NCBI GenBank assembly: GCA_964511435.1
Contig: CAZEFH010000001.1
Coordinates: 9,346-73,345, forward strand
From: an uncultured Candidatus Saccharibacteria bacterium
GTDB lineage: Bacteria > Patescibacteriota > CPR2 > UBA1875 > CAIMLA01
DNA length: 64,000 nucleotides
Direction of reading: 5' to 3'
Shown here: piece by piece, positions 6,952 to 49,338 of the stretch
Layout: every line of letters starts with the position of its first letter
How positions within the stretch are numbered: the stretch's first letter is position 1
Translations under genes and position numbers: made by a program
Notes under the pieces: generated by a model
Seen by the model: the letters and a program-made list of their open reading frames with translations, nothing else
The model's database searches: none
Told to the model about the DNA's origin: nothing

Positions 6952-8835
6952 TTACTCCAGAACAGCTTTTATTCGCCTTACTCCAGAGGAGCTGGACTCC
7001 TCCTTTTTGATGCGGAATTTACCAAGTTCACTGGTATTCTTTACGTGCGGCCCACCACATATCTCTTTCGAGAATGCATCTGTTGAATATAGGTCTCCAC
7101 CGATAGTATATACTTTTACCTTTTCACCATATTTAGAATCAAAAATACCTGTAGCCCCATTACCCTTTGCGTCCTCTACTGTCGTAATAGTTTCAAACAC
7201 TGGTAAATGAGAATTAATTTTGTCATTCACCATTTCTTCGACAGCTTGTTTTTGAACGTCAGTTAGCTTGTCTGGATGAGAAAAATCAAAACGAATTCTC
7301 TCTGATGTGATATTCGCACCACGCTGGCTAACATGTGGCCCTAGAATTCGACGAAGCGCCTCAAGCATCAAATGAGCGGCAGTGTGATAGCGAACTGTTT
7401 GCTCTGAAGTATCCCCTAGGCCGCCTTTGAATTTCTTTTCAGCGCCTTTACGTGATAAATTTTGGTGTTCGGAAAATTCTTTATCAAATTCTGCTTTTAT
7501 TTCGTTAATCTTGTCCGCATCAAATTTGGGGTCTTTAGATAATTCTTCAATCGTCATTTCGTATGGAAACCCATAAGTTTGAAACATATGAAATGCTAAG
7601 CTTTTCTCAAATTTATTGCCCGATAACGATTGCTCACGTCCCTTTTCAAATACCTTTAACCCATTCTCAAGCGTTTTATTAAACTTCTCTTCTTCCTTTT
7701 CCAACGCTGCATAAATAAATTGTTCATTTTCCTGAAGAAGCGGATATACTTTGCCCATTTTCGCGACCACTTCACGGGCAACAGATGAAGTAAATAACCC
7801 GGATATCTCCAAGTTCCGTCCATGACGAATTGCCCGGCGAATCAATCTACGAACTATATAGCCGCGATCGATATTTGAGGGCTCCACGCCTTCGGCAAGC
7901 ACAAAAGTAGCGGCTCTCAAATGGTCAGCTACTATCCTCATCGATTTCATGGTTTCCAGCCAGCAATCAGGCATAGTCTCATAGCCCAAGTCTCCAGGTG
8001 TAAATTCATATTTCTTTTTTGAAAGCTCTTCAATTTTGCCAATGATTGGCTGGAAAAGGTCAGTTTCAAACACAGAGCTTTTCTTTTGAGCAAACATCAA
8101 TTGTCTTTCTAATCCAATACCAACATCTACATTCTTCTGCTCTAGCTTCTCAAATTTACCTTCAGCATTCTTAAAGTACTCCATGAAGACATTGTTACCA
8201 ATCTCCACATACTTATCACAGTCACATGCAGGATCACAACTAGGACTACATTTTGGCAATCCAGTATCGATAAACATCTCTGTATCTGGCCCGCATGGTC
8301 CAGTCTCTGCCGCTGGTCCCCACCAGTTCTCTTTTTTGTCATATTTATAGATTCTATCTGCCGGAATTCCGATCTCATCTTTCCAGGTATTGTATGACTC
8401 TTCGTCAAACGGAGCGTCGTCATCACCTGCAAAAACTGAGATAGATATCTTGTCTTTATCAAAACCCAACACTTTCGTATAAAAATCAAACGTGTAGCGG
8501 ATCGATTCCTTCTTAAAATAATCACCGAGTGACCAATACCCAAGCATTTCAAAGAATGTCAGGTGACAGGTATCTCCGACTTCATCAATGTCTTTAGTCC
8601 TGAGACAAATCTGAGAATCAACTAGTCTCTTGCCAAGTGGGTGCCTCTCGCCCATCAAATATGGTACTAAAGGGTGCATACCGGCTGTCGTAAATAGTAC
8701 TGACGGGTCATTCTCCGGCACTACGGGATATGAAGGAATCGGCGCGTGGCCACTTTCTTTCATAAAATCAATAAATTTTTGTCTTAGTTGTTCTGAAGTC
8801 ATATTATATTTTTTACGAATTTCACTTATTGTCAT
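6952..8835 (-). CDS. alaS: Alanine--tRNA ligase, short form (catalytic plus editing domains, no C-Ala domain)
   Basis: LFTTAGMHPLVPY class-II AlaRS core; editing-domain HTAAHLMLEAL...CGGPHV; only 627 aa versus about 870 for full-length bacterial AlaRS. Confidence 0.9.
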   Translation of the reverse strand: MTISEIRKKYNMTSEQLRQKFIDFMKESGHAPIPSYPVVPENDPSVLFTTAGMHPLVPYLMGERHPLGKRLVDSQICLRTKDIDEVGDTCHLTFFEMLGYWSLGDYFKKESIRYTFDFYTKVLGFDKDKISISVFAGDDDAPFDEESYNTWKDEIGIPADRIYKYDKKENWWGPAAETGPCGPDTEMFIDTGLPKCSPSCDPACDCDKYVEIGNNVFMEYFKNAEGKFEKLEQKNVDVGIGLERQLMFAQKKSSVFETDLFQPIIGKIEELSKKKYEFTPGDLGYETMPDCWLETMKSMRIVADHLRAATFVLAEGVEPSNIDRGYIVRRLIRRAIRHGRNLEISGLFTSSVAREVVAKMGKVYPLLQENEQFIYAALEKEEEKFNKTLENGLKVFEKGREQSLSGNKFEKSLAFHMFQTYGFPYEMTIEELSKDPKFDADKINEIKAEFDKEFSEHQNLSRKGAEKKFKGGLGDTSEQTVRYHTAAHLMLEALRRILGPHVSQRGANITSERIRFDFSHPDKLTDVQKQAVEEMVNDKINSHLPVFETITTVEDAKGNGATGIFDSKYGEKVKVYTIGGDLYSTDAFSKEICGGPHVKNTSELGKFRIKKEESSSSGVRRIKAVLE

Positions 8836-11676: not shown

Positions 11677-12260
11677 TATTTATCCCCCAAACTTTGAGCA
11701 AAATTGATAAAAATCTTGCTCACTTCCCCAAATGTAAGATATCGAGCCACATTGTTATCCCACCAGTTCTTCTTACTCCAGTTCTGATCCTTGGCAGAGT
11801 GATTGATAATTTTGAAATCCTCTCCTAGTTCTTTCTTGAATAAATTATTTGCACGGCGTTGATGATAAGGCGAGGTAACTAAGATTATGCCTTGATAGCC
11901 ATTTTCACGAATAATTCTAGCACTAAACTGAGCGTTTTCCGCGGTAGTTTGTGACTTCTCTTCGAGAATTATCGCATCGGCAGGGATGCCTGCCTTTATC
12001 GCGATTCTTGCCATGGCTAGGGCATTTGAAACATCGCCTTCGGCAGCCGCACCCGAGAAGATTATCTTTGGCGCCCATCCCTGCTCATAGAGTTTCACGC
12101 CTTCCGTGATGCGTGAATCAGTATCACCTCCAGATACAACAACGATTACATCTGTCTTTTCTAGTGGGTTCTGCGGCGATAAGTAGAGTGCCAAGGCAAA
12201 TGGAATAAAGACAACTATCAGCACAGCTATCAAGATGGCGGCTATTAGTTTCTTAATCAT
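11676..12260 (-). CDS. DUF218/YdcF (SanA/ElyC-like) membrane-anchored protein
   Basis: N-terminal TM, VIVVVSGG...RITEGVKLYEQGWAPKIIFSG...VTSPYHQRRA pattern of the YdcF/DUF218 family. Confidence 0.7.
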   Translation of the reverse strand: MIKKLIAAILIAVLIVVFIPFALALYLSPQNPLEKTDVIVVVSGGDTDSRITEGVKLYEQGWAPKIIFSGAAAEGDVSNALAMARIAIKAGIPADAIILEEKSQTTAENAQFSARIIRENGYQGIILVTSPYHQRRANNLFKKELGEDFKIINHSAKDQNWSKKNWWDNNVARYLTFGEVSKIFINFAQSLGDK

Positions 12261-13216
12261 CAGTCTATAAACTCCTGGACAAATATCTTGCCATCAGCAC
12301 CACAATCAATTACCGCTATCCCTATTTTGCTGTAATCACCGGAAAGAATGTTCGCCTTGTGCCCAGAAGATTCCATTAGCCCTTTCATAGCCGCATCGGC
12401 ATCCTCGGCGAGCGCCAGGTTTTCGCCAGCAAAGAAGAAGCTTATACCCGCCTCCTTCATCCGATCAAATGGAGACTTCCCGGCTAGGTTAATGTGGGAT
12501 AAATAGCCTTTCTGAGCCATATCCTTACCGTGAGCCTCTGCTACCGAAGACAGCTTTTTATCAAGTACCAGGTCTTCAAATCCTGCCCGCTCTCTTTCAA
12601 GATTCACACTTGCAAGCATCTCCTTGGCACTACTTTGATCCAAAACCGGATGTGTTAACTTAAAGCTGAGAGTCACCTTGTCTGTACTGCCACTAGATAT
12701 AGTCGTAAATCGAGCGATAGTGGAAGCAGCTTCGCCAAATGTTTTCTCAAAGGCTCGAGACAGTGGTGCAGTTGATTTTGCGACAACTTTACCAGAAAGT
12801 GAACTCGATAAATCGTCTTCAACATCACCGCCAAGAGGCAATATCATCAAGGTACTAGAGATTGCAAAAAGGAATATTGAGCCCTTCACTAGGCCCAGGA
12901 CTATTCCTCCCCAGATATTCCAGCGTGAATCCAAAACCTCATCGTCAACTCTGCCTAGCATATATAACATCGCTATATAACAAGCTATCTCTATGATAAA
13001 CCAAATCAGAAAAAAGCTCCCTGCCTTAATGAATGACTGTGGGATTGATAGAAACTGATTCCCTACCTTTGCAAGACTCCCATATAGAAAGAAAGCACAT
13101 CCAAACGAGACCACCAAGATTAGTAAGTCACCAGCTTCTTTGATGAGGCCTCTGCGATAACCGAGCAAACCAAAGAGACCAAGCCCCAATAAAATAATAA
13201 GGTCAATATAATTCAT
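12260..13216 (-). CDS. CvpA-like membrane domain fused to a CAP/SCP (PR-1-like) domain
   Basis: N-terminal four-TM colicin-V-production-like region (MNYIDLIILLGLGLFGLLGYRRG...) and C-terminal CAP-like block GHKANILSGDYSKIGIAV. Confidence 0.65.
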   Translation of the reverse strand: MNYIDLIILLGLGLFGLLGYRRGLIKEAGDLLILVVSFGCAFFLYGSLAKVGNQFLSIPQSFIKAGSFFLIWFIIEIACYIAMLYMLGRVDDEVLDSRWNIWGGIVLGLVKGSIFLFAISSTLMILPLGGDVEDDLSSSLSGKVVAKSTAPLSRAFEKTFGEAASTIARFTTISSGSTDKVTLSFKLTHPVLDQSSAKEMLASVNLERERAGFEDLVLDKKLSSVAEAHGKDMAQKGYLSHINLAGKSPFDRMKEAGISFFFAGENLALAEDADAAMKGLMESSGHKANILSGDYSKIGIAVIDCGADGKIFVQEFID

Positions 13217-13283
13217 CGCTATACTATTTTAACTTTTCAGACAAATAAAAGCCACCGCCGGCTTCGGCGGTGGCTAGGACAGG

Positions 13284-13538
13284 CTACTTAAGGCGCCCCA
13301 CCATGCACGAGGCAAATGACTTCGCCTTTTTGACTAGACTTTGAGCTTCCTCACTACCAGCCCTTGGATAACCAAGCCTAGTGAGAACCTCCTCGGCGAC
13401 TTTTACATCACCCGTAAATTCAACCGTCTGACAGCTGGGATCTACTTTCACGTCTGTGAGACCATTTTTCAATAGTGCATCTTCAATGCTCTTGGCACAG
13501 CCGCCACACTTAATGTTGACTACTTCTATCTTTGACAT
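13284..13538 (-). CDS. Heavy-metal-associated (HMA) domain protein, CopZ-like with CGGC metal site
   Basis: VVNIKCGGCAKSIEDAL ferredoxin-like HMA fold; AGGAGG RBS. Confidence 0.75.
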   Translation of the reverse strand: MSKIEVVNIKCGGCAKSIEDALLKNGLTDVKVDPSCQTVEFTGDVKVAEEVLTRLGYPRAGSEEAQSLVKKAKSFASCMVGRLK

Positions 13539-13555
13539 TCCTGCCTCCTATATTA

Positions 13556-13660
13556 TTAGCAGCCACAGCCGCATGAACATTCTGATCCACAAGTACACTC
13601 TGCACCACTGGCACAGCCACACTCGCAAGTACATTTGCTTCCGCAATCACACTTTGACAT
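13556..13660 (-). CDS. Cysteine-rich metallothionein-like peptide (34 aa, 13 Cys), unannotated sORF
   Basis: Minus-strand ATG at about 13660 preceded by AAAGGAG RBS (5 nt spacer); translation MSKCDCGSKCTCECGCASGAECTCGSECSCGCGC*; below the 60-aa cut-off of the ORF track. Coordinates may be off by 1 nt. Confidence 0.6.
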   Translation of the reverse strand: MSKCDCGSKCTCECGCASGAECTCGSECSCGCGC

Positions 13661-13662
13661 CC

Positions 13663-15000
13663 TTACTCCTTTCTTTCTTTATATTTAAACACACCACTAT
13701 ACATCCCCATCGAGCAAGTAAACCGCAGTTCGTCACCCTTGGGTGGAATAAACGTAATTACGTTTTTACCTCGGAGCAGCAATTTCTGTACATCAATCTC
13801 CGGAGCAAGGATAAAGGCCGCGCAAGTAGAAATGTCCTGTACATCGATAATCCATCTGACTGGGATATTGGGATCAATCTCAAAACTACTTGGTTCATAC
13901 CCATCGCGAGTTACCTTCATCCTTACGATTTGCTCCCCATCTTGTATTTGGACATCACCGTGAGTCAGCTGTTCTACTACTTGCGGCAAAGGAATACCCA
14001 CAAGTCTAGCGCCAGCAATACCGTTCAAAACAGCAAAAACAACCACGATAGAACCAACAATAATATAAAACTTTTCTCGAAATCCCTTGGTAATGATTGA
14101 ACTAGCTCCTCCTACTATTACCAGCCCAGGTACCGTCCCAAGAGCAAAAGCCGCCATCAGCAGTCCTCCACCCCAGAAGCTGCCGGTACCAATAGCAATT
14201 AGTTGTGTTGCCTGGGTAAAGCCACATGGCAAAAAAAATGTTGCTACACCGCCGATAAATGCGCCCAAGTGACTATAACGATTTTTCTCTCTGATAGTAC
14301 GCTGTGAAAATGAAGCCCATCGCGGTAAGGGAAGACTAAATCTAGAAAGTTTGGGGATGGTTCCAGTCAGCTGAATACCAATTATTAGCATCGTTATAGA
14401 AACCAGCAATGTTGCTACCCCATTGCCAAGGGAAGATATACGAAACGATTGACCGATAGATCCGAGAAGTCCTCCAAGGATAAAGAAACCGAGTATACGT
14501 CCAAGGTTGAAGTAAATATTAGGGACAAATGTTTGCCAAGTCCCAACCTCAGGATGAAGCTCACGATATTTGGCAGAAATACCCAAAACGAGACCCCCCA
14601 CAAGAGCCATACATGTAGACAGCCCTGCCACTAAGCCCAAAATAAGTGCCGCTGATAGATTGTATCCGTTAGTAAGGGTTGACGGCAATATTTGCGCAAA
14701 CCCCATGACACTGCCAAGAATAAGTAGTGTAGAGAAACCAATGCCCGAAATTATGACCCACAAATATCTGCTACCATCACGTGAAAACCAGCGCTCATTC
14801 GAGTCGTTAATAAAATATCCAGCACCCTTGATAGCCGCCACTACAGCAGCAATTTTGTAGTTACCAGACACTACAATCTCGCCACGAGCATTACTTGCGC
14901 GTACACTCACTACGCCATCGATTCTACCTACCTTCTGCTTCAAGAGAGTCTCGCAAGCAGGGCAATGCATTCCGCTTACTTTGATAGTTTCTTTGGGCAT
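13663..15000 (-). CDS. Membrane metal-handling protein: N-terminal HMA domain (GMHCPAC), DsbD/CcdA-like polytopic core, C-terminal extracytoplasmic domain
   Basis: Start moved to the internal Met (MPKETIKVSGMHCPACE) at 15000, 1 nt after the iscU stop (translational coupling); multiple TM helices with conserved Cys (LSTCMALVGG, FLPCGFTQ); the Cys/Met-containing C-terminal domain (TCSMGMY) is cupredoxin-like but only tentatively so. Confidence 0.65.
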   Translation of the reverse strand: MPKETIKVSGMHCPACETLLKQKVGRIDGVVSVRASNARGEIVVSGNYKIAAVVAAIKGAGYFINDSNERWFSRDGSRYLWVIISGIGFSTLLILGSVMGFAQILPSTLTNGYNLSAALILGLVAGLSTCMALVGGLVLGISAKYRELHPEVGTWQTFVPNIYFNLGRILGFFILGGLLGSIGQSFRISSLGNGVATLLVSITMLIIGIQLTGTIPKLSRFSLPLPRWASFSQRTIREKNRYSHLGAFIGGVATFFLPCGFTQATQLIAIGTGSFWGGGLLMAAFALGTVPGLVIVGGASSIITKGFREKFYIIVGSIVVVFAVLNGIAGARLVGIPLPQVVEQLTHGDVQIQDGEQIVRMKVTRDGYEPSSFEIDPNIPVRWIIDVQDISTCAAFILAPEIDVQKLLLRGKNVITFIPPKGDELRFTCSMGMYSGVFKYKERKE

Positions 15001-15001
15001 A

Positions 15002-15388
15002 CTATTTTTTATTTCGATAGTCTTTGATTGCTGCCTGTAGCGCATTCGCTGCTAGGTTTGAACAGTGCATCTTCACTGGAGGAAGACCACCAAGAGAGGC
15101 TGCTACCTCGGCGTTGGTCACCTTTTCTGCCTCATCCAGGGGCATTCCTTTTACCATTTCGGTAATACGACTAGAAGTAGCAACGGCAGCACCACAGCCG
15201 AAGGTCTGAAACTTCACATCCTTGATAATTTCTTTACCGTCAACTTCCTCAATATCGAGATAGATCTTCATAATGTCTCCACAGGTAGGATTCCCTGTCT
15301 CTCCCACACCGTTTGCATCCTTAATTGTTCCCACATTGCGTGGGTTCATAAAGTGATCCATCACTTCCTTCGTATATAAATCTGCCAT
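15002..15388 (-). CDS. iscU: Fe-S cluster scaffold protein IscU/NifU-like
   Basis: Conserved Cys ligands in GNPTCGD, FGCGAAVATS, HCSNLA; 128 aa. Confidence 0.9.
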   Translation of the reverse strand: MADLYTKEVMDHFMNPRNVGTIKDANGVGETGNPTCGDIMKIYLDIEEVDGKEIIKDVKFQTFGCGAAVATSSRITEMVKGMPLDEAEKVTNAEVAASLGGLPPVKMHCSNLAANALQAAIKDYRNKK

Positions 15389-15390
15389 AA

Positions 15391-15753
15391 TTAGTCTCCT
15401 ATTCTTTTTATACTTTCAACTGTTACCACTATCGCCCCTTTGGCCGGGAACCCTTCGTGGATTTGTTTAACCTGGTTATGCCAGATATCATTTACGGAGT
15501 ACGATGCTCGCCCCGTCATCTTATAGCCGAAACACTCGTCCTCCCAGTTTCTGTTCCATACTACCAGGACCACCTTATTATTTTTTGCAATGTTCGATAC
15601 TGTCTTTGTGAGGTAGTTGTCACCTATCAGAAGCTTATCTTTCTCCACCACTTTCACGTCAGCAACTACGGCAACATCTGGGTTGTCAAGAACACATGTA
15701 GCTATTGCCACAGGGTTCTTCTCTATTAATCTGACTGCTTCTTGATTAATCAT
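15391..15753 (-). CDS. Pyridoxamine 5'-phosphate oxidase-like FMN-binding split-barrel protein
   Basis: Size and pattern (AIATCVLDNPDVAVVADV...VVLVVWNR) fit the PNPOx-like family; weak call. Confidence 0.5.
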   Translation of the reverse strand: MINQEAVRLIEKNPVAIATCVLDNPDVAVVADVKVVEKDKLLIGDNYLTKTVSNIAKNNKVVLVVWNRNWEDECFGYKMTGRASYSVNDIWHNQVKQIHEGFPAKGAIVVTVESIKRIGD

Positions 15754-15755
15754 CT

Positions 15756-16958
15756 CTACTCTATCGGGCTCATTTTTCTTAACTTTTCTACTATTCCTGG
15801 TAAGTAATTCATCATCTCATCTATGTCTTCACGCTTATTTAACTTGCCCAGACTGAAACGTACCGCTCCATGGGCATCAATATCGGCAATCCCCATCGCC
15901 TTCGTGACATTGCTTGGCTCGAGACTGCCAGAAGTGCAAGCGGAGCCAGAAGAAGCGGCGATGCCCACCATATCAAGATTAATTAGAATTGATTCACCCT
16001 CTATTCGCTTAAATAGAATAGTAGCTATATGTGGCAATCGTTTAGAGTCATCATCAGGTCCTAGCAGCTCCACGTCAGGAATTTCCTTTACAACCCGTTC
16101 CGTAAGATAATCTCTAAGTACTGTTATTTGCTTTTTGTTATTTGCTTTTTGTTCGCTTGCAAGCTCCATTGCCTTGACCATACCCACGATATACGGCACA
16201 TTTTCAGTCCCAGCTCGTAGGCTTCGTTCCTGCGCTCCACCGAGCTGCTGTGGTCGAAACTTGGTGCCAGACTTTACATATAGAAGACCGACTCCCTTGG
16301 GACCATAGAATTTGTGTGCGGTAAGGCTAAGCATATCGACGCCGAGGTCATGAACATTTGTATCAAGGTATTGAAAGGCTTGTACGGCATCGGTATGAAA
16401 CACTATTGGCAGGGTGTTGCTCTCCTTTTGCCTTTTTGATTTTACATCTTTAATTATTTCACCGATTTCCTTAATCGGCTGAATAGAACCAACTTCATTA
16501 TTACCATACATAATGGTAACTAGAGCGGTGTTGTCCTTAATTGCGGCAGCCACATCAGCCGGGCTTACTAAGCCTTGACCATCAACCGGCAAAATAGTAA
16601 TCTCGGCGCCGTAAGCTTTTTCAAGTCGCTTTACGACATCCAGAACACAGTGATGCTCGATGGCGCTTGTTATAATGTGTGGTCGGTTTTTAAGGATATT
16701 AGCTGCTGCCTCAGCCACGCCAAGAAGAGCCAGGTTATTTGACTCTGTGGCACCGGAAGTAAAGATAATTTCACCCGGTTTGGCAACACCAAGAAGCTTC
16801 GCAGCCCTTTCACGGGCGTTGTTCAGAGCATCCTTAGCCTCACGACCAAGTGCATAAATGCTCGATGGATTCCCCCAAACATCAGTAAAATATTGGCACA
16901 TTTCTTTTCGGACTAGCTTATCAATCGGCGTAGTTGCAGCATGATCAAAATAAATCAT
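15756..16958 (-). CDS. iscS: Cysteine desulfurase (IscS/NifS class)
   Basis: PLP-fold motifs SGATESNNLAL, SLTAHKFYGPKGVGLLYV, SSGSACTSG active-site loop. Confidence 0.9.
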   Translation of the reverse strand: MIYFDHAATTPIDKLVRKEMCQYFTDVWGNPSSIYALGREAKDALNNARERAAKLLGVAKPGEIIFTSGATESNNLALLGVAEAAANILKNRPHIITSAIEHHCVLDVVKRLEKAYGAEITILPVDGQGLVSPADVAAAIKDNTALVTIMYGNNEVGSIQPIKEIGEIIKDVKSKRQKESNTLPIVFHTDAVQAFQYLDTNVHDLGVDMLSLTAHKFYGPKGVGLLYVKSGTKFRPQQLGGAQERSLRAGTENVPYIVGMVKAMELASEQKANNKKQITVLRDYLTERVVKEIPDVELLGPDDDSKRLPHIATILFKRIEGESILINLDMVGIAASSGSACTSGSLEPSNVTKAMGIADIDAHGAVRFSLGKLNKREDIDEMMNYLPGIVEKLRKMSPIE

Positions 16959-17176
16959 TACCTTATCTCCTTTTTCACATGAGCGATGCAGCCCTTACAC
17001 TCATTAATCTGGTCGCGTTCGAGATTCTCGATCTTCTTGTAGTCATCCCAGGAAATAAGCACCCCTACTGGATCAGAGTAACGCAAAATCACCGTCCCAG
17101 TACCACTTTTTAGTCCTGTAAGGATTTTTGACGCATTATTGGCTAGTTCCGCGGTCGTAATAAATTTTTCTTTCAT
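16958..17176 (-). CDS. Phd/YefM-like antitoxin-fold small protein (orphan)
   Basis: MKEKFITTAELANNASKILTGLKSGTGTVILRYSDPVGVLISWDDYKKI resembles the Phd/YefM N-terminus; stop overlaps the iscS start; no cognate toxin adjacent. Confidence 0.5.
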   Translation of the reverse strand: MKEKFITTAELANNASKILTGLKSGTGTVILRYSDPVGVLISWDDYKKIENLERDQINECKGCIAHVKKEIR

Positions 17177-17243
17177 AATGTCCTTAAATAAAATGTTACC
17201 CTACTTCTAGGGTAACATTTGAGGTAACATTGTGTCAATGTTT

Positions 17244-46851: not shown

Positions 46852-49338
46852 TTACTTGCCTATTTTCAACATTTTCGAGGCGGATGTCCTAGTGCCACCG
46901 ACTAACTTTGTAAGTTCAAGTACAACTAGGAGACTGGCGGCGATACCGCCCACCATCCAGATGAGATGCCAGGGGAGTTCTCCAAAACGAAATACTTTTA
47001 CCAGAAAGCTAGTACTAGTCGCTAGTACTAGCATCACGTATGTAAATATAACTACGGCAATAAGCGCCCTGTTGTCATTACGAGGCAGCTTCGTAAGTAA
47101 TAATTCTTTCTTAGATAAATTTACCAGTATAAGTACTACATTTATTGTAACTAGCAGAGCAAAAACAAAGGTTCTCGCCGTATTTTCACCGACAACCGGT
47201 AGCAACTGCAGATACGATACCGTAAGCACAACACCACTCACGAACCCTAGTAAAATCGGTGATAGTAGATTGCGGAGAGATACTATGCGCTCACTAACTG
47301 TACGAGGCCTTCGATCCATGATGTCACGATCTTCAGTGTCCGATTCAAAGACTACCGTACAGGTCGGATCAATCACAAACTCCAGAAAGACTATGTGCGC
47401 GGGGAAGAGTACCAGCGGTAGTCCTAGAAGTACCGGTACTACTGAAAGAATAACGATTGGGATATGTACGGCGATGAGATAACCTATGGCCTTCTGGAGA
47501 TTGTCATAGATTCTCCGACCTAGTTTGACTCCTCCAACTATAGAATTGAAATTGTCGTCGAGAAGTACGATACTAGCCGCCTCGCGAGCGACATCAGTCC
47601 CCCTTTGGCCCATGGCAATACCAATATGAGCCGCTTTTAGAGCTGGAGCATCATTGACACCGTCTCCAGTCATTGCCACCACCTCCCCCATCTCTTTCAG
47701 GGTCTGGACAATCAGTAACTTCTGAGTAGGCACTACACGACTAAAAACAGATGTCTTCTCGAGTATCTGTCTCCTCTTTGCATCACTAGCTTTCTCAAAC
47801 TCCGCTCCACTGACCACACCCTCAGTCTCGATGCCTATCTGCTTGGCTATCGAAAATGCAGTTTCGTGATAATCGCCGGTGATCATGATTATCCGGAGCC
47901 CTGCTCGTTGTGCTAACACAACCGATTCGGGGACACCACGACGGATTGGGTCCGCCATCGCCGCAAGTCCTACGAATTCAAACTTAATATCATGACGATT
48001 CTCGGGTAATTCTGACCCTTGATATTCTGCTTTCGCTACTGCCAGTACCCGGAAACCATCATGAGCAAAGCTAGCCACACTAGTAAGAATCTGCTTCTTC
48101 TCCTTGACACTCAGATGACAAAGGTCGATTACCGCTTCTGCCGCCCCCTTCAGGGCTACCTCATAGTCTTCCCCGAAACGATATCCGTGAGCGACACAGA
48201 GAGATTCTGGCGTAACCGGATATTCTTTCACAAGTTCATAATGGTCATAAAGCTTATCAAGATCGAGGTATTTCTTCCCTTCAACCACAAATGCCGATTC
48301 CATGGGATCAAACGGCTTCTTTTGTGATGCTAGGAGACCGTATTTAATTACTTCTTTATCGGCAGTAAAGTCGTTCAGCATCACCTCTCCGCCTACTGGG
48401 ACTATTGCCTCGATTTTCATCCTGTTTTCAGTCAACGTGCCTGTCTTATCAACACAGAGTACTGTTGCGGCACCAAGAGTCTCTATCGAAGCAGAGCGAC
48501 GTGTCAGGACATTATGTCTTGCTAGCCTCCAGGCCCCCATCGTCATAAATAGTAGCAGAACGATTGGAAACTCTTCTGGCAGAATTCCGATAGCAAGAGT
48601 TAGCCCAGAAAGAATCCCCTGTATCAGATTGCCACGAGTTACTGTATAGACGGCTGCCAGAACAATACAGAGTAGTATTCCGATAATCGCAAGATATCGC
48701 ACCAGGGTAGTAATTTCTTTTTGCAGCAAGGTCTTTTCTATCTCTATTGATTTTAGCGACTTACCAATCTTCCCCAGCTCAGTCTGAACCCCTGTCGCCT
48801 GAACCACCGCTACGCCGTGTCCACTGACCACCATAGAACCAGAGAAAACTTTGTTCTGGTCCGATACATTCTTCTCGACCGCTACTGATTCTCCCGTCAG
48901 TAGTGATTCGTCTACTTGAAGATTAACTGCTTCCAGCAGTCTCGCATCTGCCGGTACTCTATCCCCTTCTACTAGATGGACAATATCTCCGACCACCACT
49001 TCGCGTCCAGGAATACGAACTTCGCGACCACCGCGTACAACGATTGCTCGCGGACTCGAGAGCTGAGTCAGGGCCTGTAGCGATTTTTCGCTCTTGCGTT
49101 CTTGATAGAGCGATATCGCCACCACTCCTACAATCGATAGTAGCAGCAGTAGCGCTTCGGCGACATCACCGAGAAATATATATAGTAGACCTGCTGCAAG
49201 AAGCAGAGAAATCATCGGTTCTTTGATTATTTCTAGTAGAAAATACCCCAAAGTTTTGGGTTTTGCGGTAGGAAGTTCGTTGTACCCATTTATCTTCAGT
49301 AATCGTGCCGCCTCAGCGGTCGTAAGGCCTGTCTGCAT
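46852..49338 (-). CDS. P-type cation-transporting ATPase (type II, Ca2+/Mg2+-like)
   Basis: Phosphorylation motif CVDKTGTLTEN, TGES-like actuator (TGESVAV), MITGDYHETA, GDGVNDAPALK; 10 TM topology. Confidence 0.85.
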   Translation of the reverse strand: MQTGLTTAEAARLLKINGYNELPTAKPKTLGYFLLEIIKEPMISLLLAAGLLYIFLGDVAEALLLLLSIVGVVAISLYQERKSEKSLQALTQLSSPRAIVVRGGREVRIPGREVVVGDIVHLVEGDRVPADARLLEAVNLQVDESLLTGESVAVEKNVSDQNKVFSGSMVVSGHGVAVVQATGVQTELGKIGKSLKSIEIEKTLLQKEITTLVRYLAIIGILLCIVLAAVYTVTRGNLIQGILSGLTLAIGILPEEFPIVLLLFMTMGAWRLARHNVLTRRSASIETLGAATVLCVDKTGTLTENRMKIEAIVPVGGEVMLNDFTADKEVIKYGLLASQKKPFDPMESAFVVEGKKYLDLDKLYDHYELVKEYPVTPESLCVAHGYRFGEDYEVALKGAAEAVIDLCHLSVKEKKQILTSVASFAHDGFRVLAVAKAEYQGSELPENRHDIKFEFVGLAAMADPIRRGVPESVVLAQRAGLRIIMITGDYHETAFSIAKQIGIETEGVVSGAEFEKASDAKRRQILEKTSVFSRVVPTQKLLIVQTLKEMGEVVAMTGDGVNDAPALKAAHIGIAMGQRGTDVAREAASIVLLDDNFNSIVGGVKLGRRIYDNLQKAIGYLIAVHIPIVILSVVPVLLGLPLVLFPAHIVFLEFVIDPTCTVVFESDTEDRDIMDRRPRTVSERIVSLRNLLSPILLGFVSGVVLTVSYLQLLPVVGENTARTFVFALLVTINVVLILVNLSKKELLLTKLPRNDNRALIAVVIFTYVMLVLATSTSFLVKVFRFGELPWHLIWMVGGIAASLLVVLELTKLVGGTRTSASKMLKIGK

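Follow-up and report, generated by a model that had tools for sequence, protein, structure and literature searches.

Metallothioneins are considered rare in bacteria, and a review of copper homeostasis describes only two kinds, SmtA/BmtA and MymT. MymT of Mycobacterium tuberculosis, the product of a small open reading frame (ORF) that was once unannotated, binds up to six Cu(I) ions and belongs to the regulon of RicR, a paralogue of CsoR (PMC7558416, PMC3944814). Csp3, a Cys-rich protein of the bacterial cytosol, stores Cu(I) and acts against copper toxicity (PMC5171941, PMC7558416). The csoR gene occurs in csoR-copA-copZ or csoR-copZA operons, the operators of which are palindromes with GC tracts, sometimes two per promoter; proteins combining an HMA and a DsbD_2 domain (COG2836) are inferred members of the CsoR regulon (PMC4938975). 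Among the targets of Cu(I) are Fe-S clusters, and in vivo the ion is bound by both IscU and IscA (reviewed in PMC10249872). Here we describe a gene specifying a Cys-rich, metallothionein-like peptide of 34 residues in a Candidatus Saccharibacteria genome (GCA_964511435.1). The DNA analysed, 64,000 nt of contig CAZEFH010000001.1 (positions 9,346–73,345, forward strand), is referred to as the window, and coordinates are those of the window unless another contig is named. In the reading that we favour, to which a probability of about 0.7 is assigned, this gene yields a genuine cytoplasmic Cu(I)-buffering metallothionein-like product and forms part of a copper cassette placed behind nifS and nifU.

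A short Cys-rich ORF downstream of nifS and nifU

The sequence and a list of its ORFs bore out an original prediction, made from the letters alone, of a 105-nt ORF on the minus strand (13556–13660, including the stop codon) served by an AAAGGAG Shine-Dalgarno sequence. The ORF encodes MSKCDCGSKCTCECGCASGAECTCGSECSCGCGC, a peptide of about 3.3 kDa in which 12 of the 34 residues (35%) are Cys; the prediction had counted 13. The Shine-Dalgarno sequence (13666–13672, minus strand) is embedded in the last codons of the gene for a membrane protein, directly before the TAA of that gene (13663–13665), and lies 5 nt upstream of the peptide ATG, with the TAA 2 nt away from the latter. Cys accounts for 0.74% of the residues in the long ORFs of the window; at this frequency the binomial probability of at least 12 Cys in 34 residues is about 1e-17.

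All the Cys residues are spaced as CxC or C-x3/x5-C, in CxC, CxCxC and CGC runs, and the core common to this peptide and to its homologues of 40 and 72 residues (see below) is CxCGCxxGxxCTC. None of the three forms contains Phe, Trp, Tyr or His. The peptide therefore has the features by which metallothioneins are recognised: a small size (34 residues, 40 and 72 in the homologues, where the limit is about 10 kDa), a high Cys content with CxC-type spacing, and the near-absence of aromatic residues and His.

The exact 34-residue sequence was not found among about 15 billion predicted proteins, which indicates that it has been overlooked by gene callers and is unannotated. The stretch encoding it contains no tandem repeat, matched no Rfam family and, as RNA, folds no more stably than shuffled sequence (z = 0.25); these null results argue against an explanation based on an RNA or a repeat. 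The ORF list showed all three reading frames of the minus strand to be open across the stretch, which is why a signature of selection specific to one frame matters here.

Homologues in two other lineages and coding status of the ORF

When 1.84 billion representative proteins were searched exhaustively with the peptide (phmmer), a single match emerged, P0002 (E = 5e-4), with 71% identity to the 34-residue form. P0002 had been called as a protein of 65 residues; reading of the contigs that bear it (L081–L084, from three metagenomes of the Joint Genome Institute and one SRA run) places the true gene in a 40-codon ORF (8076–8198 of L081) that has an ATG and the Shine-Dalgarno sequence AAGGAGC and encodes MSECTCGDSCTCDCGCAEGKECTCGPDCACGCGCAKTETK. 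Synteny with the window is evident on these contigs, which carry genes for MetRS, an MFS protein, TatD, an SH3 protein and a Phd/YefM-like protein, then nifS, nifU, the slot that holds the peptide gene, cvpA-CAP and DUF218. A third lineage was found by using the neighbouring CvpA-CAP protein as the search handle, followed by inspection of the locus contexts. In the same slot it carries a gene for a 72-residue form, MSDCKCGDKCVCECGCAEGKPCTCGPDCSCGCADSEKSECKCGPDCECDCGCGEGKPCTCGDDCVCKCGCGK, with 23 Cys and a tandem-doubled module (5711–5929 of L212, from GCA_964501135.1; also in L213). As in the window, the homologous genes start with ATG preceded by AAGGAG or AAAGGAG.

The three peptide genes share 68–73% DNA identity. 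Those of the window and L081 differ at 33 nucleotides, of which 7, 5 and 21 fall at the first, second and third codon positions, respectively; every Cys (12/12) is kept, with 8 of the 12 Cys codons swapped between TGT and TGC. Across the pairs of genes the proportion of synonymous differences (pS) was 0.47–0.87 (at saturation in two pairs out of three), against 0.14–0.22 for nonsynonymous differences (pN). Conservation is not limited to Cys, but extends to G7, T11, G15, A17, G19, E21, T23, G25, G31 and G33. By these comparisons the ORF is a real gene, evidently subject to purifying selection in this very frame. In-frame conservation in relatives, which the original prediction had named as a check, was thus found in two other syntenic lineages, along with the ATG, the Shine-Dalgarno sequence and the traces of purifying selection.

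Gene callers dealt with the family in three ways: the ORF of the window was not called, a wrong frame was taken in L213 (1066–1291), giving a Val/Ala-rich product of 65 residues, and the gene of L081 was extended 25 codons upstream into csoR (8001–8198). Given these three kinds of error, the family is probably under-counted in protein databases. A metagenome scan using an alignment of two peptides gave 183 stretches with the pattern, none of them confirmed by tblastn, probably owing to low-complexity filtering, and a scan for CxCxCGCxxGxxCxCG at the DNA level, with degenerate codons, picked up so many (TGYGGN)n microsatellites as to be uninformative, which leaves the distribution of the peptide under-sampled. 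A tblastn search of plasmids with the 72-residue form gave nothing, as did a scan of viral contigs for the pattern CGCxEGKxCTC.

The slot between nifU and cvpA-CAP across the clade

The interval from nifU to cvpA-CAP is a variable slot that contains metal-handling genes in every lineage compared. In the window it holds the genes for the membrane protein, the 34-residue peptide and an HMA protein of 84 residues; in L212/L213, csoR, the membrane protein gene, the gene for the 72-residue peptide and a terminator; and in L081–L084, a gene for a DUF1858-like redox-disulfide protein, csoR, the gene for the 40-residue peptide and a terminator. Elsewhere the slot is occupied by a P-type ATPase gene. 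This ATPase (about 735 residues) accompanies the membrane protein in L001, L002, L211, L214–216, L219 and L220; csoR, the membrane protein gene and the ATPase gene are found together in L217/L218, and in L206–210 the ATPase is paired with a separate membrane-anchored cupredoxin.

All the complete slot ATPases (7/7) carry an N-terminal CxxC, CPC, YN(x4)P and MxxSS, a set of motifs that we take to be the P1B-1 signature for Cu(I)/Ag(I); that of L206, cut at the contig end, shows the C-terminal YN(x4)P and MxxSS only. The ATPase of L001 passes the NCBIfam model for copper-translocating ATPases, TIGR01511, with 610 bits against a cut-off of 397. Across 11 lineages the peptide was present in three and CopA in eight, the two never occurring together in the slot, a descriptive count of lineages that are not independent. 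This mutual exclusion suggests that, in this slot at least, sequestration substitutes for efflux. The one P-type ATPase encoded in the window (46852–49338) lacks copper motifs.

Two further observations were made on the slot. On L206 (2–1612), the C-terminus of the ATPase runs on for about 280 extra residues, and the cupredoxin domain forms a separate membrane-anchored protein of 120 residues instead of terminating the DsbD_2 protein, an arrangement that looks like domain fission or shuffling. On L217, a candidate ORF for a hydrophobic, Met/Tyr/Trp-rich peptide of 47 residues, with no family match, lies between nifU and csoR (1901–2044).

CsoR genes and operators

The peptide-bearing operons of L081 and L212 are both led by csoR, the peptide gene following it directly in L081 and coming after csoR and the membrane protein gene in L212. 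The two CsoR proteins have the C-H-C spacing of the Cu(I) type (C34, H59 and C63 in L081), and their best NCBIfam match is RicR, below the cut-off. Their promoters contain C4...G4 inverted repeats, namely CCCC-TTGAC-N11-GGGG, which overlaps the –35 element, and ATCCCCAGAGGGGGGAT. A csoR gene and a CsoR-type operator were thus found at L081 and L212, as they were at the locus of P0135, a protein of the wider family described below. The presence of CsoR sensors and of a Cu(I)-type CopA in the same slot of relatives supports, as genomic context, the reading of the peptide as a putative metallothionein-like metal buffer. The gene is real, the family is conserved, and it is associated in genomes with csoR, copA and HMA genes.

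The operon around the peptide gene

All the features of the operon lie on the minus strand. The membrane protein encoded upstream of the peptide (13663–15000; 445 residues) comprises an N-terminal HMA domain (GMHCPAC), a DsbD_2 core and a cupredoxin-like C-terminus (FTCSMGMY), as judged by Pfam, NCBIfam and hydropathy; the Cupredoxin_1 match is weak (21.6 bits, with a Pfam cut-off of 27). Hydropathy and manual reading indicated about seven transmembrane segments, two of them with a single Cys. In the genome contig collection 474 relatives of this protein were confirmed; the best 80 loci are mostly titled Patescibacteria/Candidate Phyla Radiation (CPR), and in several of them, by a crude scan, a CopA gene or a small HMA gene follows directly. 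Downstream of the peptide, a gene with its own GGAGG Shine-Dalgarno sequence encodes the 84-residue CopZ-like HMA protein (13284–13538; sequence, Pfam and NCBIfam), which has a CGGC site and is present in exactly this form in the public protein collection. It might be a remnant of the N-terminus of CopA, but its similarity to the latter (about 28% identity, E = 0.16) does not exceed that generic to HMA domains. The peptide is thus flanked on both sides by HMA domains and accompanied by a cupredoxin-like domain (Pfam), as expected of a copper cassette. An intrinsic terminator detected by sequence scan (13250–13275; an 11-bp stem with 9 GC pairs and a T-run) closes the operon.

Upstream of the membrane protein gene lie those for a NifU/IscU-type Fe-S scaffold (15002–15388; Pfam, and NCBIfam TIGR03419 at 194.7 bits, above the cut-off), a PNPOx-like protein of 120 residues (15391–15753; Pfam) and a NifS/IscS-type cysteine desulfurase (15756–16958; Pfam and NCBIfam). 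The first gene of the operon encodes a Phd/YefM-like protein of 72 residues with a C-terminal CxxC (16958–17176; ORF list and a weak Pfam match). Before it, sequence reading revealed a probable promoter (17193–17238) made up of TTGACA (17233–17238) and the perfect palindrome ATGTTACCC-N8-GGGTAACAT (17193–17218). The identities that the original prediction had given to the flanking HMA genes and to the NifU, PNPOx-like and NifS genes were confirmed by Pfam and NCBIfam, and the membrane protein gene does start 1 nt past the iscU stop, as it had stated (ATG at 15000). The junction between nifU and the membrane protein gene is similarly tight in L001. Intergenic gaps within the operon are 1–2 nt, the sole exception being the 17 nt, with the GGAGG site, that precede the HMA gene. 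No convincing promoter was found in the interior of the operon, where promoter-like matches do not exceed the shuffled expectation. The peptide gene is presumably co-transcribed with nifS and nifU, and translation of the cassette would be coupled to that of nifU.

The arrangement had been regarded as non-standard. This does not hold for the position of the cassette, since a copper cassette sits behind nifU clade-wide; what is particular to the window is that the cassette has neither a csoR gene nor a promoter of its own and is apparently fused to the nifS-nifU transcript.

The PNPOx-like gene, separated by 2 nt from nifS on one side and from nifU on the other, is conserved also in L001, L212 and L214. 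In L081 and L217 a MazG-like gene precedes nifS instead, and L212 combines the PNPOx-like gene with a weak MazG-like gene that lies between it and nifU. The Phd/YefM-like gene heads the same operon in L081 (5353–5571), L212 (1515–1733) and L214 (34–252), and its product is a candidate for a small autoregulator acting on Fe-S assembly in this clade. Downstream of the slot, a gene coding for a CvpA membrane domain (colicin V production) fused to CAP/YkwD (12260–13216, minus strand, in the window) is a constant neighbour in every relative examined.

A wider set of proteins with the CxCGCxEGKxCTC module

A profile was built from the three peptides and P0003, a protein of 63 residues with 18 Cys that shares CGCAEGKECTCG with them and is encoded on contig L085 (8001–8192). 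With candidates gathered through shared words, it retrieved about 25 more small ‘hypothetical’ proteins (P0124–P0147) with one or two copies of CxCGCxEGKxCTC, which are probably homologous to the CPR peptides. One of these, P0135 (62 residues, with two CxCGCxxGxxCTC modules), occurs on 36 contigs, in a metagenome-assembled genome (MAG) labelled Alphaproteobacteria. Its gene lies immediately upstream of a csoR gene of the C-H-C type and has a promoter with two canonical CsoR boxes, ATACCCCGGCGGGGTAT and TATACCAGTAGGGGGTATA. This pairing, an independent recurrence in an unrelated genome, is the strongest hint of copper regulation.

At the P0135 locus (L221, 5001–7195), genes for a C_GCAxxG_C_C protein and a rhodanese come after those for P0135 and CsoR and share their strand, with a nitroreductase gene on the opposite strand in between; these neighbours hint at a thiol/sulfur side to the locus. 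The module is also found inserted in DUF1292 proteins (P0129 and P0131, which P0146 resembles in its N-terminal region) and behind a signal or lipoprotein-like N-terminus (P0126 and P0133), and it may therefore be active outside the cytoplasm too. The P0003 contig has 27% GC and a phage-like look, with ORF6N, Bro-N and SSB genes; a PNPOx-like gene lies near that of P0003, and no CsoR is encoded.

Discussion

The most likely role of the peptide is to soak up toxic Cu(I). The apo-peptide, which is expected to be disordered, would wrap several Cu(I) ions as a thiolate cluster, lowering the free Cu(I) of the cytoplasm, and would trade Cu(I) with the CopZ-like HMA protein, a putative chaperone, and with the HMA domain at the start of the membrane protein. 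The latter protein might in turn pass copper, or reducing equivalents, to its extracytoplasmic cupredoxin-like domain. Since the cassette of the window has neither CsoR nor its own promoter, its expression would track the nifS-nifU operon and not copper. A Cu(I) sink made together with the Fe-S scaffold could thereby protect NifU/IscU; the damage that copper does to Fe-S clusters, and the binding of Cu(I) by IscU and IscA, provide a rationale for a copper cassette beside nifS-nifU.

Four alternatives were weighed against Cu(I) buffering, and only one of them is serious. The peptide could be real and serve another ligand: it might buffer Zn/Cd, hold iron or an Fe-S cluster, or act on the sulfur that NifS mobilises, as a thiol/persulfide sink or carrier. 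The operon shared with nifS-nifU would suit such a role, as would the rhodanese and C_GCAxxG_C_C genes near the P0135-CsoR pair; some members of the CsoR family (CstR) sense persulfides. Metallothioneins generally bind Zn and Cd too (PMC7558416). However, the neighbouring CsoR proteins retain the His that belongs to the C-H-C signature of Cu(I) sensors, the alternative occupant of the slot is a P1B-1 ATPase with the Cu(I) signature, the HMA and cupredoxin partners are those typical of copper, and the peptide has no His. On balance, a different ligand is considered unlikely.

The remaining three fit the data far less well. A short peptide rich in Cys, Ser, Thr and Gly, the 40-residue homologue of which gives a faint, non-significant match to listeriolysin S (NCBIfam, E = 0.54), might be the precursor of a ribosomally synthesised and post-translationally modified peptide, whether a thiazole/oxazole-modified microcin (TOMM), a lanthipeptide-like product or a radical-SAM thioether peptide. 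Yet no gene for a YcaO/cyclodehydratase, dehydrogenase, LanB/C/M, radical SAM protein, protease or exporter adjoins the peptide gene in the window, L081 or L212, nor is there a leader/core layout, the Cys module beginning at residue 4 and being merely duplicated in L212; a precursor role is very improbable. Just as little chance is given to a leader ORF rich in Cys codons, the translation of which would sense cysteine or Cys-tRNA and control downstream genes or a terminator. The ORF is small, the gene for the cysteine-consuming NifS belongs to the same operon, and in L081 and L212 the peptide gene is directly followed by an intrinsic terminator and cvpA-CAP; in the window, however, the next element is an HMA gene with its own Shine-Dalgarno sequence and no terminator. 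The conservation of non-Cys positions and the lack of unusual structure in the RNA also speak against a leader, for which a doubling to 72 residues would make no sense. Least probable of all is a chance ORF or a non-coding spacer without a product. All three frames are open and gene callers either skipped the ORF or, in L213, took another frame, but the Cys content defies chance (P of about 1e-17), and start, Shine-Dalgarno sequence and frame are kept at 68–73% DNA identity with changes mostly at third codon positions, so that comparative data effectively refute this explanation.

Several points weigh against the reading of the peptide as a Cu(I) buffer. The Cu(I) role is proposed from sequence and gene context, and the metal bound may instead be Zn, Cd or Ag. 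No homologue of CsoR is encoded in the window (tblastn, best E = 0.9), and no C4-N(2–18)-G4 element was found from 10.9 kb to 58 kb of it, a stretch that takes in the operon and its probable promoter; with neither a CsoR gene nor a CsoR-type operator, copper responsiveness is unsupported here. The best 80 loci with the membrane protein, which are more distant, contain no comparable Cys-rich ORF, so the peptide is no general partner of that protein. From the loci found, in three CPR lineages, the peptide appears to be a narrow and patchy trait. The E-values of the wider family are marginal (6.6e-5 to above 1), and low-complexity convergence of its members is possible. Finally, the slot alone is visible, and a CopA gene could be present elsewhere in the peptide-bearing genomes. 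A broader proposal would have CxCGCxxGxxCTC define a third, largely unannotated bacterial metallothionein family, present in Patescibacteria and in Alphaproteobacteria-labelled and other MAGs, typically under CsoR control, replacing CopA as the defence against cytoplasmic Cu(I) in the ultra-small CPR cells and hard-wired to nifS-nifU in the window, where each round of scaffold synthesis would bring a Cu(I) sink with it; this is offered tentatively, and we lean against it as a whole.

As a Cu(I)-buffering candidate in a group of proteins held to be rare in bacteria, the 34-residue peptide is concrete and can be synthesised. The family, with 34–72 residues in CPR and probable relatives elsewhere, has been systematically missed or mis-framed by gene callers, and its true distribution is probably underestimated. 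The alternation of peptide and CopA in one slot lets sequestration be compared with efflux, as in a natural experiment, in organisms with minimal genomes. The fusion of a copper cassette to genes for Fe-S assembly is in keeping with the idea that Cu(I) strikes the cell chiefly at Fe-S biogenesis, and opens that idea to testing.

Comparison with known families and systems

Pfam returned no family for the 34-, 40- or 72-residue forms, or for P0003, even at E up to 10; the listeriolysin S match of the 40-residue form was the sole one of the peptide forms in NCBIfam, and no PDB chain matched any form. A full-text literature search for the motif EGKECTC yielded no paper, and one for metallothionein together with Patescibacteria nothing relevant. 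By profile comparison, the peptide is outside all the known metallothionein sequence families tested (the Pfam families with names beginning in Metallothio, Metallothio_Pro/SmtA, and NCBIfam).

MymT provides the nearest functional parallel in several respects: it is also a tiny, Cys-rich cytoplasmic peptide that was initially unannotated, is tied to a repressor of the CsoR family and probably sequesters Cu(I), several ions at a time. There is, however, no detectable sequence relationship (Pfam, NCBIfam), and the peptide of the window lies in a nifS-nifU operon without CsoR/RicR control. MymT has 53 residues, contains His and shows a different Cys pattern, and to our knowledge it is restricted to pathogenic mycobacteria. 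SmtA/BmtA (Pfam Metallothio_Pro) are likewise small bacterial proteins that buffer metals through metal-thiolate bonds, but they have a zinc-finger-like fold, bind mainly Zn/Cd through Cys and His ligands and are regulated by SmtB, of the ArsR family; the peptide gives no match to their hidden Markov model, has no His and occurs in a copper rather than a zinc context. A Csp protein, a pre-folded four-helix bundle of about 120 residues with a Cys-lined core that assembles into tetramers, was rejected as an identity for the peptide, which is too short, matches no such sequence and has no PDB or Pfam match.

The pattern of the peptide also recalls the eukaryotic Cu-thioneins (Neurospora/Agaricus Cu-metallothionein and yeast Cup1) and the beta-domain of animal metallothioneins, in which CxC runs are interspersed with Gly, Ser and Thr in modules of about 25–35 residues. 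These likewise lack aromatic residues and show tandem duplication of the module, as in L212, a resemblance that serves as a lead. Since no Pfam metallothionein family is matched, this likeness points to convergence of pattern and not to homology; moreover, the operon context of HMA, CsoR and CopA has no eukaryotic counterpart. The csoR-copA-copZ and csoR-copZA operons of Firmicutes and Actinobacteria resemble the sister loci, which have csoR with copA or csoR with an HMA protein, and operators that are GC-tract palindromes, in places two to a promoter; they differ in that a metallothionein-like peptide here takes the place of CopA, and that the window has lost, or never had, csoR. The composition is that of a metallothionein and every known metallothionein family failed to match, for which reason the peptides are classed as a family that is new in sequence but belongs to a known functional kind. 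On the best reading, its members would be metallothionein-like peptides by which bacteria bind Cu(I).

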